This document shows, piece after piece, positions 1 to 61,815 of a DNA stretch of 64,000 nt (the first letter of the stretch is position 1; each line of letters opens with the position of its first letter). Origin of the DNA: an uncultured Gemmatimonadaceae bacterium (lineage in GTDB: Bacteria; Gemmatimonadota; Gemmatimonadetes; Gemmatimonadales; Gemmatimonadaceae); the NCBI GenBank assembly GCA_963829055.1, contig CAWHHI010000020.1:832001-896000 (forward strand). The letters are read 5' to 3'. The notes below the pieces were generated by a model. The model was not told the DNA's origin, made no database searches, and saw only the letters and a list, made by a program, of their open reading frames with translations. A program made the translations under genes and the position numbers.

Positions 1-1352
1 ACGGGCTCGCCGATTCCACGGGCGACATGAACTACCGCAACTCCAACATCTACGCGATCGACGTCGACCACGGGCGCCATGCAGCGCCTCAATTCGGCGG
101 ACGGTGCCTGGTCGATCGCCGGTCGTCTCGCCCGACGGACAGCGCATCGCGTACACCGGCTACACGCAGGTGAAGGACAGCTACCACACGGCCGAGCTGT
201 ACGTGATGAACGCCGACGGCAGCGGCGCGAAGAAGATGTCGGGCGATCTCGATCGCGACGTCGGCGACGTCACGTGGGCGACCGACGGCAGCGGCGTCTA
301 CTTCACGGTGGCGGACAGCGGGACGTCGAACGTGTACTTCTCGCCTAACGCCGGCGGCGCGCGACCGGTCACGACGGGGACGCACGCGATCTCAGCGTTC
401 TCGATGTCGAAGAGCGGCAAGATGGCGGCGCTCCGCAGCAGCTACACGACGCCGCCCGACGTCGTGCGCATCGGCCTAACGCGCACCGGCTCGGCCGAGA
501 TCACGCAGCTCACGCACGTGAACGACGACGTGCTCGCGCGCGTGAAGCTCGGCGCAGGTGGAGCGCGTGCGCTATACGTCGACGGGCAACACGACGGTGG
601 ACGGCTGGGTGGTCAAGCCGCCGAACTTCGACCCGTCGAAGAAGTATCCGCTCCTCATGGAGATTCACGGCGGACCGCACGGCGCGTACGGCGTCGGCTT
701 CAGCTATCAGTTCCAGAACTTCGCCGCGAACGACTACGTGGTGCTGTACACGAACCCGCGCGGCTCGACGGGCTACGGCAGCGCGTTCGGCAACGCGATC
801 ATGCACGCGTACCCGAGCGTGGACTACGACGACCTCATGGCCGGCGTGAACGCGGTCGTGAACAAGGGCTACGTGGACACGACGCGCATGTACGTCGGCG
901 GATGCTCGGGCGGCGGCGTGCTCTCGAGCTGGGTGATCGGCCACACGAACCGCTTCGCCGGCGCGGCGGTGCGCTGCCCGGTCATCGACTGGCTGAGCTT
1001 CGCCGGCCAGACGGACATCCCGTTCTTCACGTACAACTTCTTCGACGCGCCGTTCTGGGAGAAGCCGGAGCAGTGGCTCAAGCAGTCGCCGCTCATGTAC
1101 GTGGGCAACGTGACGACGCCGACGGTGGTGATGACGGGCGTGCTCGACATGCGCACGCCAATGCCGCAGAGCGAGGAGTTCTACGCGGCGCTGAAAATGC
1201 GTGGGATCCCGTCGGCGCTGATTCGCTTCGAGGGAGAATTCCACGGCACCGGATCGAAGCCGTCGAACTTCATGCGGACACAGCTCTACATGATGAGCTG
1301 GTACAACAAGTGGCGACGAACTGGCACATCGGTGACCACAGCAATGGAGTAG
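1..1352 (+). CDS. S9 family (prolyl oligopeptidase / acylaminoacyl-type) peptidase; 5' end outside window; frameshifted near 118 and 555
   Basis: TolB-like beta-propeller repeats (SPDGQRIAY, WATDGSGVYF) in ORF 104+, then catalytic domain in ORF 558-1352 with IHGGPH, GGCSGGG nucleophile, GVLDMRTP Asp and EFHG His. Confidence 0.9.
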
Positions 1353-1369
1353 GAAACGGCGTGACAGCT

Positions 1370-1628
1370 GAAAGGGCGCGAAATGCCGAACGGCGCGAAA
1401 TCCCGAACGGCGCGAAATCCCGAACAGCGCCAAATGCCAGACGGCGCGGAATCCCAGACGGCGACAAAATGCGGAACGGCGAGAAGCGGCGGACGTGGGA
1501 ACGGCATTCCGCCTTTTGTCGCCGTTCGGGATCTCGCGCCCTTCGGCATTTCGCGCCGTCTGGGATTCAGCGCCGTTCGGGATTTCGCGCCGTTCGGGAT
1601 TTCGCGCCGTTAGTGCCCTGCGCCGTTC
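1370..1628. repeat. Tandem-plus-inverted array of a 17-bp unit (GAACGGCGCGAAATCCC): about 7 direct then about 7 inverted copies
   Basis: Direct units at 1388, 1405, 1422, 1439, 1456, 1473; reverse-complement units (GGGATTTCGCGCCGTTC) at 1528, 1545, 1562, 1579, 1596; lies between convergent genes. Confidence 0.9.
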
Positions 1629-1636
1629 AGTCGTGC

Positions 1637-58461: not shown

Positions 58462-58555
58462 GCCTAACGCCACAGCTGAGCCGCGAGCGCAGTATCACCA
58501 TCGCGCCGTAGGCGCCTTCCAGAGATCGCTCGTCGGCTCCAACGTGACGTTAGGT
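58462..58555 (-). mobile_element. Integron attC recombination site (solitary; no integrase in window)
   Basis: Minus strand ACCTAAC-GTCAC-GTTGGAGC-CGACGAGCG...CGCTCGCG-GCTCAGC-TGTGGC-GTTAGGC: R''/L''/L'/R' with 5- and 6-nt spacers and two unpaired bases in the left arm. Confidence 0.85.
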
Positions 58556-58728
58556 ATCTCGGCCGTGATAGCTGCGGAACGGGCGGGACTGGGACCGATG
58601 CCTCGTTCACGGCGGAGGAGCGCTTTGGACTGAGGATGCAAGCGCTGCTGCAGACACGCAAGGTGACAGAAGAACCGCGCCCCGGGCGAACGCTGGCCGA
58701 TCAACGCCAGCCCGCCTCACGGCACCAT

Positions 58729-61421
58729 TCACGGTCGCGCCGGCTCAGCCTCGAACACCTCGCGTCGCCGAGATACGTCGCCGTCGGGAATCACGACCGC
58801 GACCCACGGCACGCTGGAGGCCTTCGGCTTCCCTTTCCACTCGATCGTCACCGGCGCCCCCGTCCGAGCGGACACAGAGCGCAGTGGTCGGTCGATCACC
58901 AGATTCTCCGACCGCAACTCGAACGTCCGTGCGTCGGCCCGAGAAGACGTTAGGCGCACCGTCACCTCACCGTTCGCCGCCGTGGTGGCCGCTACGGTGA
59001 ATCCCGGAGGCACCGGCGGGCTGGCTCCGAGCAAGTCCGCCATCAGCCACAGCCACCGGCCCGTGGAATGCACCCACACTTCCTTGTACACGTACATGTT
59101 CGCCGTCGGCCAGTACGGCACGATCCGTAACGCCACGACTCTGCATCCCCACCGGCAACGATCCCACGAAGTCGCCCGACGACACGCTGTACTGCTGCGC
59201 CCAGTCGTAGCCCTCACCGTACATCGTGCTCTGCACGAACGGATTGCGACCCACGATCCACTGCGCCTGACGCTGCGCCAGATCCAGCCCCGCGCTGTCA
59301 CCGCGCAGCCGCGCCGCCGTCGCCAGCGCCTTCGCCTGCGAGAGCAGCGGCCCATAGTTGCCGCGACGCGCGAACCACACGGGCATTGCTCTGAGATACC
59401 ACTCGCCACCCATCGGCATCCCCGCGCGCACCTGCGCGCGATACTGATCCCGCGTCGCACCATGCAACGCGCCCGAATCGGGCACCTCCTTCACCTCGTC
59501 GCCCGCGCGGTACACGTACGCCGGCAGCACGCCGTACGGCGCCGTCGTCGTCGCCGCGCGCTTCTGATAGTCGGCGTACAGCGCCACGGCCGAGTACCAC
59601 TTCATCCACTCTGCGTCGTTAGGCAGCGCGTCGACGAGCTGCGACAGCGCGACGATCGGCGCCTGATCGTTCCCGCGATGGAATTGATGGAACAGCGTGT
59701 CGCGATCCGGCCCGGTGTAGAAGAAGCCCGCGAGCGGGAACGCCTGGCCCGACCCGCTGCTTCTGCTGCGAGTCCATGATGACGCGCGCGAGCTCGACGG
59801 CCTTGTCCGCGTACTTCTCGCTTCCCGTCGCCTGATACAGCTCGAGCGACGCCGTGACCCCAATGCCCGCGAGCTCCATGCGCGTCGCCGCGAACGCCGG
59901 CGTGTGCCACGTGCTCGGGCCTTCGACGCCCACGATCGCGTAGCTCCAATCGTCCTCGGCGATCGCGAGGCTGCGCGCCGCCAGCTCCGGATCGCTCTCC
60001 TTCAGCACGCGATGCCGCGATCGCCTCGGCCGCCGCGGCAATGTAGTTCGCGTTCGGGTTGTTCTTCGCCTCGCGCGAGCGGTCGTCGGCGTCACCGACG
60101 ATGTTGTTCGTCCACAGGTTGTGACTCGCGAACCCCATGCGGTATCCGCCGGGGAATCGCACGCGCAGCACCCAGTCGAGGCCCCACTTCGCCTCCTCGA
60201 TGAGCCGCGCCACGAGCGCGGGGTCGTCGCCTAGCGCACGCGAACGCGCTCGGCGAGCGCGAACATCGAATAGGTGATCTCGCCGGTGTTGATCACGCCC
60301 TGCGACAGATCGCCGGCGTCGTGCCAACCGCCCGCCATCACGATGCGCTGATCGCCGTGCGTCGCGAACCAGTCGAGGTGATCGACGCCGTGCGAGCCCG
60401 GCACGGCGAACCCGCACCGCTCGCCGTAGAAGAAGTTGAGCGCCTTCCAGATCGGCTCCTTCCACACGTCGCCACCAATGCGAAACGGGCGCGTCGTGGT
60501 TGCGCCCGCACGAATCACGTACGTGCCGGGCTTGTTCACCTCCGAGAAGTCCAGCTCCTGGAACGCCCCGAGCCGACTGCGCACGGGCTCCACGCGCTTG
60601 TGCAGGACGATCTCGCCGAGTGCGTTGTCGTTCACGCGGATGAGATCGAAGGAAGTGGCGGTGAGGTCGCTCGCGATCGCGGTCTTCGAGCTCCCGGTCT
60701 GGTAGCCGGTGTGACTGAACGAGATCCTGCCCGGCGCCACGTTCCACCCGGTGTGATGCTCGGGTTCCACTCGCTGCAACTCGAGGCGCCCGATCTCGAA
60801 CGCGACGCGATCCGTCGGCGCCGCGAGCATCTTGTTCACCCAGTATCCGATCTCGAGCATCGTCACGCGATCGCGCGCCAGCGGCTCGATCTCCCACACG
60901 ACCTGCTGCCACCCGTCCCTCGCGAGCGTGACGTAGTGCGTGCCCTCGCGGTTGTAGCGATCGGGCACCTTCTCCGCGCCGTCGTTGTGCAGGACGATCT
61001 GCAGCGGGACCGCCGGAATGCCCGAGACCTCCGGCTTGATCCACATCGAGATGCGGTTGTACGCGCGCCAATCCTCGCCCGCGAACGCGCGCTGAAGGTT
61101 CACGGACGACAGCTTGCTCGACGTCGGTGCGGGTGCGCCGGTGAACATCTGCATGTCCACGCGCAGCACGCGCATGTCTCCCTGGCGCAGCTCCGCGGGA
61201 AACGTCAGGCGACCGGTTCCGGTAAACCGCCACGTCGCTGGCTGGGTCATGTCGTCGAGCACCTTGCTCGCGAGCACGGGCTTTCTCAACCAGCCAAACT
61301 CGGCCGAGTTCTCGTAGTCGATGGGCATGAGCGCGCGCGGGGCCTGCGCGAGTCCCGAGTCGGGCGCGAGCGCACTGCCGCACAGCGCGACCAGGAGAAG
61401 CGAACCGCGCATCGTGTTCAT
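58729..61421 (-). CDS. Secreted glycoside hydrolase family 9; frameshifted near 60240, 60015, 59755 and 59125
   Basis: Signal peptide; Ig-like SHTGY, FFYGERCG, GGWHDAGD, EAKWGLDW, VGRNP, YKEVW. Confidence 0.82.
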
Positions 61422-61815
61422 GAGCTCAGCGTATTGTGGAAGCGATCAGACGGGCCGGCGATACCACGCTCGATGCGAGAATGCCTTGCTTGCACCGGGG
61501 CACACGGTCCATGGAAACTGCGCGTCACAGTTCGGGCAGCGTCCGCGCCGTCTCGAACGTGTCCCAGAGATGGCCGCACCCATCCGGGGCACACATCCAG
61601 CGATCGTACGGCATCGGGACGTAGCCGCAACCGGGGCAGGCGACGTCAGGTCGGGCGCCGGTCACGTGACGCGGTGCCTAACGGCTCGCTGATATGGTCT
61701 CACCATTCTCCTTGGCCGCATCGCGCGCGACGACGTACGTGGTCGTATCCCACGCGTTGTGAATCCCGATGAAGCGTGAGCGCCGCCACGCCGGCTGAAC
61801 AATGCAACTATGCCA

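Follow-up and report, generated by a model that had tools for sequence, protein, structure and literature searches.

Few short DNA words are known to pave genomes, and each is bound to one clade: the DNA uptake sequences (DUS) of Neisseriaceae, the uptake signal sequences (USS) of Pasteurellaceae, the highly iterated palindrome 1 (HIP1) of cyanobacteria, Chi (RecBCD/AddAB) and the FtsK orienting polar sequences (KOPS). Known uptake sequences are marked by tripeptide enrichment, absence from new genes, dialects, and distances between copies that relate to fragment size (PMC2817400, PMC2397512, PMC7371117), and such hallmarks are also described in PMC7811141. In Neisseria, DUS are enriched in the core genome and frequently occur as pairs in terminators (PMC2397512). 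HIP1 reaches an abundance of 15- to 300-fold (PMC5861425) and is now tied to transformation (PMC13756078). Here we analyze a 64,000-nucleotide stretch of DNA from an uncultured Gemmatimonadaceae bacterium (assembly GCA_963829055.1, designated G000), hereafter the window (G000:C20:832001-896000), and the octamer GCCTAACG (reverse complement CGTTAGGC) that is written through it. The word is real and an apparently undescribed member of the class of hyper-iterated DNA words. The original prediction, made from the letters of the window, had called the signal undescribed, and no account of the word as a genome signal was found in the literature searched (supplements lay outside its scope, and a methylome table could list the motif). 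Codon and amino acid choice are altered by the word in soil bacteria that are abundant, mostly uncultured and spread over at least two phyla, as well as in some phages; whatever reads it, the word is a ready marker for binning, the detection of chimeric assemblies and phage-host assignment. We tentatively take it for a tag resembling uptake sequences, spread through biased uptake of DNA and molecular drive.

Like DUS and USS, GCCTAACG is a short, non-palindromic word present in thousands of copies, about one per kb on both strands; it lies in genes in preferred frames, raises the encoded peptides, is missing from foreign DNA, occurs in dialects and is found where competence genes are present. 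Unlike them, it differs in its letters from GCCGTCTGAA, AAGTGCGGT, and ACAAGCGGT (PMC2817400), spans 8-9 bp with no CTG core except in the GCCTGACG dialect, occurs in two to three phyla, is patchy within its family and is dense in some phages. With HIP1 (GCGATCGC) it shares the hyper-abundance of an octamer in genes, spread by substitution, deviations at the outer bases, and alternates in some lineages. In contrast to HIP1, it is not palindromic, it spans phyla, and no co-occurring methyltransferase was found among two enzymes profiled. Chi and KOPS are likewise non-palindromic octamers over-represented at the DNA level, whereas GCCTAACG is almost without replichore skew, has direction-blind spacing, uses rare codons and occurs in many carriers in which an AddAB-type nuclease was not found. 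Finally, the word equals, letter for letter, the ends of attC-like repeats (R'' RYYYAAC, R' GTTRRRY) in a Gemmatimonadales integron array, whereas its genome-wide copies are single, inside genes, made by substitution, and without hairpin partner or cassette layout. The word belongs to none of the DUS/USS, HIP1, integron attC, or Chi/KOPS families.

The octamer in the window and its genome

The window holds 57 exact copies, against 1.16 expected and a maximum of 4 in 100 dinucleotide shuffles. A recount returned the originally reported numbers, 33 GCCTAACG and 24 CGTTAGGC, at the same coordinates:

343..61683, both strands (33 plus, 24 minus): dispersed set of exact GCCTAACG octamers (n = 57, 0.89 per kb)
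Plus strand, starts of GCCTAACG: 343, 474, 1635, 2558, 5845, 7529, 9866, 11311, 14366, 17724, 20124, 24816, 26012, 26706, 29103, 31511, 31855, 32580, 37587, 39134, 39665, 40893, 45232, 48830, 48935, 50840, 51947, 52761, 54018, 54853, 55863, 58462, 61676
Minus strand, copies read as CGTTAGGC: 4559, 5407, 6908, 8076, 9188, 10204, 12748, 14704, 15778, 22371, 23720, 29510, 29684, 30738, 33936, 40097, 41835, 43073, 47499, 48207, 48559, 54804, 58948, 59617
1635..1642, plus: copy supplying the stop codon (TAG) of a gene on the minus strand that ends at 1637
7529..7536, plus: copy supplying the stop codon (TAG) of a gene on the minus strand that ends at 7531
8076..8083, minus: copy supplying the stop codon (TAA) of a gene on the minus strand that ends at 8078

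The three stop codons listed last had been predicted, and the copies at 14366, 39134, 48830, and 59617 supply one as well (7/57 in total). One-mismatch variants that keep CCTAAC are indeed present, although 15 further CCTAAC cores were counted rather than about a dozen, and the guanine-plus-cytosine (GC) content of the window is 67.2% instead of about 69%.

Across G000 there are 5,004 copies (2,457 and 2,547 by strand), at 0.48-0.80 per kb on each of its 20 contigs, so the word is not limited to the contig on which it was noticed. Sequence information is confined to the eight bases, with only a mild preference in the flanks on each side. Our gene calls comprise 7,223 genes and span 74% of the G000 DNA; since the assembly is rich in frameshifts, in-gene copies are undercounted. 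By these calls, 3,222 copies lie inside genes, 385 across an edge, and 1,387 outside. The claim that most copies sit inside open reading frames is therefore true genome-wide but not in the window, where 26/57 are wholly inside and 24 outside. Window genes are often broken by apparent frameshifts (e.g., 104-1648, 32344-34911, and 58967-61421), typical of an unpolished long-read assembly.

In-gene copies use four frames, those that do not create a stop. Under synonymous-codon shuffling of the 4,072 best of the 7,223 genes, the 2,611 copies observed compare with 74.9 +/- 7.1, a 35-fold excess. The enrichment thus persists under a codon-preserving null, and the proposal of a chromosome-wide, DNA-level signal that overrides codon choice is borne out. 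GCCTAACG is carried by 1,082/2,178 TTA codons and by 696/1,190 permissive x-Pro-Asn-x sites, it provides the stop codon in 439/7,223 called genes, and Pro-Asn ranks 7 of 400 dipeptides in G000 genes, with an observed/expected ratio (O/E) of 1.38. A high-order Markov model gives no useful O/E (1.7 at order 4), as the word inflates its own sub-words.

The word is not specific to this assembly: a RefSeq plasmid record of Gemmatirosa kalamazoonensis (Gemmatimonadaceae), which encodes a protein 85% identical to one of the window, carries 31 copies in 50 kb, and the word also occurs in records with contig names of short-read assemblers. Within G000, GCCTAACG is absent from three stretches of 31-50 kb (C6:5440-55037, C6:591808-623330, and C11:1-46789), whose tetranucleotide distance is 2.4-3.8 versus a 95th percentile of 1.44, and in which many genes duplicate G000 genes at 30-60% identity, including second copies of housekeeping genes. 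They represent either foreign DNA or chimeric joins, the latter being the more probable, with other bacteria as the source. The anticipated depletion in foreign DNA is seen here as zero copies, in stretches that may be assembly chimeras rather than true islands. Foreign DNA lacking the word in the same assembly provides an internal control against a sequencing artifact, and together with the plasmid and the short-read-assembler records it rules out an artifact of assembly or base calling. Native stretches of 9-16 kb without GCCTAACG also occur in G000, and the ribosomal-protein cluster is low, at 0.34 per kb.

How sites arise was read from 81 comparisons with homologous DNA, which are not independent, as several cover the same site: 16 sites are shared, 32 differ synonymously, 17 non-synonymously, 11 lie outside called genes, and 5 are gapped. 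Within the genus, 11/34 aligned copies are retained versus 22% of all 8-mers, a small sample. Sites are gained and lost in place by point substitution, mostly synonymous and sometimes costing an amino acid. Examples in the window are as follows:

47499..47506, minus: copy in a plus-strand gene, read Pro-Leu-Gly; non-synonymous difference from relatives
51947..51954, plus: copy in the serine-hydrolase-family gene 50876-52594 (minus strand), Pro-Leu-Gly with TTA
50914..50921, plus: motif-free position, which reads GCCGCACG here

The first site is Pro-Ile-Gly, without the motif, in three same-genus relatives at four loci (L033, L035, L036, and L041). At the second, a single synonymous change removes GCCTAACG in G001; copies in this gene are common to G002, G004, G005, G006, and the Gemmatirosa plasmid. 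At the third, G001, G002, G004, and the plasmid have the motif via synonymous changes that leave Arg-Val-Arg-His unchanged. A repeat element or insertion scar is ruled out, as the flanks are unconserved and the differences are substitutions.

Distribution among bacteria and phages

In the Gemmatimonadaceae, 88/251 genomes have at least 150 copies and 54 have at least 1,000 (maximum, 7,821), the remaining 163 having 145 or fewer. These tallies include G013, G050, G051, G147, G256, G297, G369, and G402 (unpublished), with G051 among the 88, and no claim depends on them alone. Seven of seven genomes of the bacterium's own genus are motif-rich; elsewhere in the family, G122 has 66 copies, whereas five members of its genus have 3,244-4,141. 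Counts are raised in 5/96 genomes of another family in the order, all in one genus (181-1,061 copies), a third family contributes G030 with 345 copies, and outside the order 0/63 genomes reach 150. Rich and poor genomes are intermixed in a quick, poorly resolved one-marker tree of 30 genomes. There are also dialects: GCCTGACG occurs 2,387 times in G073 and 2,094 times in G061, where GCCTAACG numbers only 191 and 85, and both genomes also use GCCTCACG, with a following A, for a consensus of GCCT[G/C]ACG(A).

The signal had been described as lineage-specific, which is not supported, as the word is also plentiful in some members of a second phylum and patchy within its own family. Among the matches listed in a two-copy scan (one genome per species) are at least 80 titled loci: 36 titled Chthoniobacterales or Verrucomicrobi-, 29 Gemmatimonadota, and 15 others. 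Five Chthoniobacterales genomes hold 2,254-5,186 copies each, and 14/131 genomes of that order have at least 150. In 1.2 Mb of one of its members, G442, the word is extended as GCCTAACGA in 535/656 cases, closely spaced copies are again rare in either orientation, on the basis of few pairs, and verified coding pieces hold 197 copies versus 5.0 +/- 2.4. Five of the other matches were inspected, and one, titled Myxococcota, has 662 dispersed copies. Within that Myxococcota-titled class, 11/151 genomes have 152-662 copies; the dispersed layout was checked in one, and the other ten may be cassette arrays.

Viral scans, three in number, gave at least 206 two-copy matches, most of them chance or one-strand arrays. 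Five phage contigs, however, carry 11-31 copies on both strands versus 0.2-0.6 expected, two copies each being given by the construction of the scan. One motif-rich phage contig encodes terminase, portal, scaffold, and capsid, and copies also lie inside phage structural genes. Comparison of the phage proteins with G000 yielded two matches only, one of them (L184) outside the five motif-rich contigs. On viral contigs L191, L164, L142, and L212, GCCTAAC is found mostly on one strand at short-gene borders, like phage-borne cassette arrays.

Spacing, direction and candidate readers

Copies of GCCTAACG in G000 avoid one another. Spacing was examined to 5 kb, plus helical phasing, and the four orientation classes were compared with a null that preserves local density, strand, and the GCCNNNCG skeleton. 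Relative to background, pair density climbs from 0.19 at separations of 8-50 bp through 0.50 at 150-200 bp to 1.0 by 500-700 bp, and pairs closer than 100 bp stand at 0.31 (++), 0.20 (--), 0.18 (+-), and 0.19 (-+) of the matched null (z, -5.6 to -9.2), with 14 convergent pairs versus 75.7 expected. One of the rare close pairs is found in the window:

54804..54860, both strands: divergent pair, 49 bp apart, within gene 54215-55735

A graded curve, whether linear (to ~380 bp) or exponential (~210 bp), fits better than a step, by ~23 log-likelihood units; a fixed protein footprint would predict a step, and a fragment or tract of variable length a ramp. Four one-letter variants are enriched in G000 genes, ACCTAACG 17-fold, GCCTAACA 13-fold, GCATAACG 5-fold, and CCCTAACG 4-fold, and likewise avoid the neighborhood of GCCTAACG; deviations are tolerated mainly at the two end bases of the word. 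This shared, graded, orientation-independent exclusion implies that the four variants are functional equivalents and that the signal saturates locally and has no direction. No exclusion near GCCTAACG was seen in G000 for GCCTGACG, GCCGAACG, or unrelated control words, and GCCTGACG, 2.5-fold enriched in G000 genes, is probably decay there, since it is not excluded.

If the word is an uptake tag, a sequence-specific DNA-binding factor would recognize GCCTAACG on double-stranded DNA in either direction, one site per few hundred bases being enough. A surface or periplasmic receptor, coupled to type IV pilus/ComEC machinery, would prefer word-bearing fragments; these would recombine back, and word-creating alleles would spread where the protein sequence tolerates them. 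A second copy within one fragment length would add little, giving the graded exclusion of 300-400 bp, while transfer and loss of the receptor could produce the patchy spread over families and phyla, and changes in it the dialects. We infer that a protein reads the word, that reading occurs at uptake, and that the receptor moved between phyla. Reading at uptake is favored because the word shows most hallmarks of uptake sequences and because a ramp indifferent to direction is to be expected if each short fragment needs a single site. Such a tag would open the first route to transforming Gemmatimonadota and soil Verrucomicrobiota genetically, and its many gains, losses, and dialects would be a natural test of how such sequences arise.

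Several observations weigh against uptake. In contrast to neisserial DUS, GCCTAACG has fewer copies in conserved genes (0.45 versus 0.57 per kb), avoids close pairs, and forms no inverted terminator pairs; its scale of 300-400 bp is shorter than the conversion fragments of 570-1,730 nucleotides reported for Neisseria, and a word common to several phyla makes a poor self tag. Pilins, secretin, and ComEC are present in G000, and homologues of PilB, PilC, PilT, PilQ, and DprA in the examined third of G442, but uptake genes are as common in motif-poor genomes and so are not diagnostic. Candidate readers were profiled over up to 80 chosen motif-rich and motif-poor genomes, the groups having been fixed from motif counts ahead of every gene search; related genomes are not independent in these profiles, and a miss in an incomplete genome is given as "not found." Seven candidates and one pilin were profiled, and none tracks the word. 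HhH_3/ComEA-family matches occur in 54/54 Gemmatimonadales, rich and poor alike, and in 20/26 Chthoniobacterales, so ComEA is rejected as the reader. No ComP-type receptor, that is, no ComP_DUS match, was found among the five pilin-like proteins scanned in G000, a further difference from DUS and USS. A conserved stand-alone pilin is present in 52/53 Gemmatimonadales, rich or poor, and in 0/26 Chthoniobacterales, and its head has few conserved basic residues. Its 11 best-scoring matches are all motif-rich, yet other motif-rich genomes score like motif-poor ones, and with kin not independent it too is rejected. Lastly, copy density on the five phage contigs is 0.8-2.1 per kb, as much as 3 times the G000 mean, which is hard to explain by uptake unless these phages are long-resident prophages; uptake sequences do accumulate in prophages and integrative and conjugative elements (PMC7371117). 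In G000 the stand-alone type IV pilin (128 amino acids; C3:516826-517212, L092) lies beside polA and has 120 database relatives at 75-99% identity.

The main rival, which we consider possible but somewhat unlikely, is an intracellular, horizontally spread DNA-binding protein that binds the word and benefits the neighboring few hundred bases, for instance by compaction or bridging, by loading a repair or protective factor, or by shielding from a host nuclease or silencer. Ordinary selection would then favor about one site per kb, and phages would adopt the word in order to exploit or escape the host factor. Graded exclusion without regard to direction is as compatible with a range of sliding or spreading as with a fragment length, and uptake genes do not track the word. 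We give this rival weight mainly because of the phages and the identity of the word across phyla: phage contigs with terminase, portal, and capsid reach 1.8-2.1 copies per kb on both strands, structural genes included, and specificity would be easier to preserve for one cytoplasmic protein crossing phyla than for a pilin. However, the native word-free stretches of 9-16 kb and the fewer core copies imply that the word is not an obligatory protective mark, there is no helical phasing between sites in G000, and no such protein was found. Topoisomerase IB is missing from 12/28 motif-rich and present in 13/26 motif-poor Gemmatimonadales (in Chthoniobacterales it occurs in 12/12 motif-rich but also 7/14 motif-poor genomes), and a radical-SAM/HhH protein occurs in 9/28 and 5/26 Gemmatimonadales, respectively. 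When G000 proteins were compared with 1.2 of the 3.8 Mb of G442, at least 391 frames matched and no convincing shared DNA-binding protein was among them; a shared reader may lie in the remainder. Were the word such an intracellular site, it would indicate an unknown mobile chromosome factor.

A HIP1-like ratchet has also been weighed and seems distinctly improbable. An unrecognized methyltransferase or other modifier would mark the word, repair or gene conversion biased to the marked strand would turn near-matches into matches, and an existing site would dominate repair in its patch. That sites arise by point substitution agrees with what has been modeled for HIP1 (PMC4390886), and deviations mainly on the first and last base are also a feature of HIP1. 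A process of this kind would act on phage DNA as well. Yet a mark on one strand predicts exclusion among same-strand sites only, and all orientations exclude. CCTAAC has A at its fifth place, as do some non-palindromic N6-methyladenine sites. The original prediction had proposed profiling for a co-occurring methyltransferase; two enzymes were found and neither tracks the word, the search of G000 for further ones being by short patterns, which could miss some. A type IIG-like methyltransferase is in 79/80 Gemmatimonadales regardless of motif count, with weak partial matches only in 2/5 motif-rich Chthoniobacterales, and a D12 methyltransferase was found in 1/5 genomes, the motif-poor G122. The type IIG-like enzyme is nearly always single-copy in its carriers and is apparently a housekeeping enzyme of the order. 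Its G000 locus (C8:73551-79061, L089) encodes a frameshifted type IIG/Eco57I-like adenine methyltransferase of ~1,070 amino acids, followed by a SNF2-type helicase.

A polar, Chi- or KOPS-type signal for a helicase-nuclease or translocase is hardly credible and largely refuted. The word is an over-represented, non-palindromic octamer with a slight bias of 55:45 across the dif-like site of C16 (Fisher p = 0.0035), and phage enrichment would fit protection from a nuclease, as Chi confers. But this bias is below that of a control octamer (64:36), strand bias is not linked to GC skew (rho = -0.14, p = 0.10, 143 bins), no density peak was seen at dif, and opposite-facing sites exclude each other as strongly as same-facing ones. 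The AddAB/RecB nuclease domain PF12705 was not found in 16/28 motif-rich Gemmatimonadales, including G056, which is 100% complete in 4 contigs; its strong matches (E below 1e-20) are commoner in motif-poor genomes (12/26) than in motif-rich ones (5/28). The absence of a strong strand bias, noted at the outset, is supported. The dif-like site stands at a GC-skew switch (G000 C16:560795), with a XerD-like gene 20 kb away. A terminator or promoter role is likewise rejected, as there are no inverted pairs and no peak near gene starts, and the excess at gene ends is the stop codon. Of the four mechanisms originally offered, polar recombination is disfavored, methylation finds no support in the two enzymes profiled, and uptake and an intracellular binding protein are both still candidates.

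The match to integron attC sites

The fit to the integron core consensus, also remarked on at the outset, is confirmed, as the word matches the ends of attC sites. In the motif-poor G021, the few copies of the word mark the attC-like repeats of a cassette array, which open with GCCTAACG and mostly close with TGTTAGGC, and these ends fit the attC core consensus RYYYAAC / GTTRRRY (PMC12901181). In G000, GCCTAACG and GCCTAACA rank first and third in enrichment and correspond to the two attC end forms. A match this exact hints at a possible shared origin of specificity. The genome-wide copies themselves are not attC sites: they are unpaired, in frame, and with unconserved flanks. The G021 array (C95, L056) is large and its attC-like repeats are highly uniform, and a region of G289 (C1, L073) is dominated by repeat words of the same style.

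One way to join this match with uptake, which we regard as unlikely, is a cross-phylum uptake tag whose reader first evolved on the universal attC core, to harvest integron cassettes of a few hundred bases from soil DNA. Once an attC-core receptor was present, biased uptake would pave chromosome, plasmids, and resident phages with the same core. If true, this would account at once for the exact attC match, the sharing of one word by unrelated soil lineages, and the shortness of the length scale, and the word would be a community-wide gene-exchange signal rather than a self tag.

That the copies are instead sites or scars of the integron integrase, left by attC/attG-type recombination across the genome or kept for IntI binding, is very unlikely. 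The G021 repeats with their GCCTAACG/TGTTAGGC ends would fit such an origin, as would the presence of an IntI-like gene (PF13495, E < 1e-9) in 15/19 motif-rich genomes tested. However, four of these 19 lack a strong match and the motif-poor G122 has four, so that IntI/SAM_4 is rejected as the reader. Moreover, the sites lie in frame in intact genes and differ from their orthologues by substitution, not insertion, no conserved attC flank surrounds them, convergent pairs within 100 bp are strongly depleted, and the other attC-type cores GTCTAACG and GGCTAACG are depleted in G000. The idea that dialect genomes lack IntI failed, as 3/6 possess it. G000 itself has an integron-integrase-like gene adjoining an attC-like repeat (C20:206900-208943, L082) and a second, short or broken one (C4:2850-3239).

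The window also contains a palindromic element of ~130 bp (43668-43795), with ends GTCATTCCGAGC...GCTCGGAATGAC, which we take to be similar to a miniature inverted-repeat transposable element or a repetitive extragenic palindrome; a similar sequence is found near 62410-62580. Its two end words, with 470 and 339 copies in G000, head the Markov over-representation list, and the copy at 43668-43795 includes GCCTGACG.

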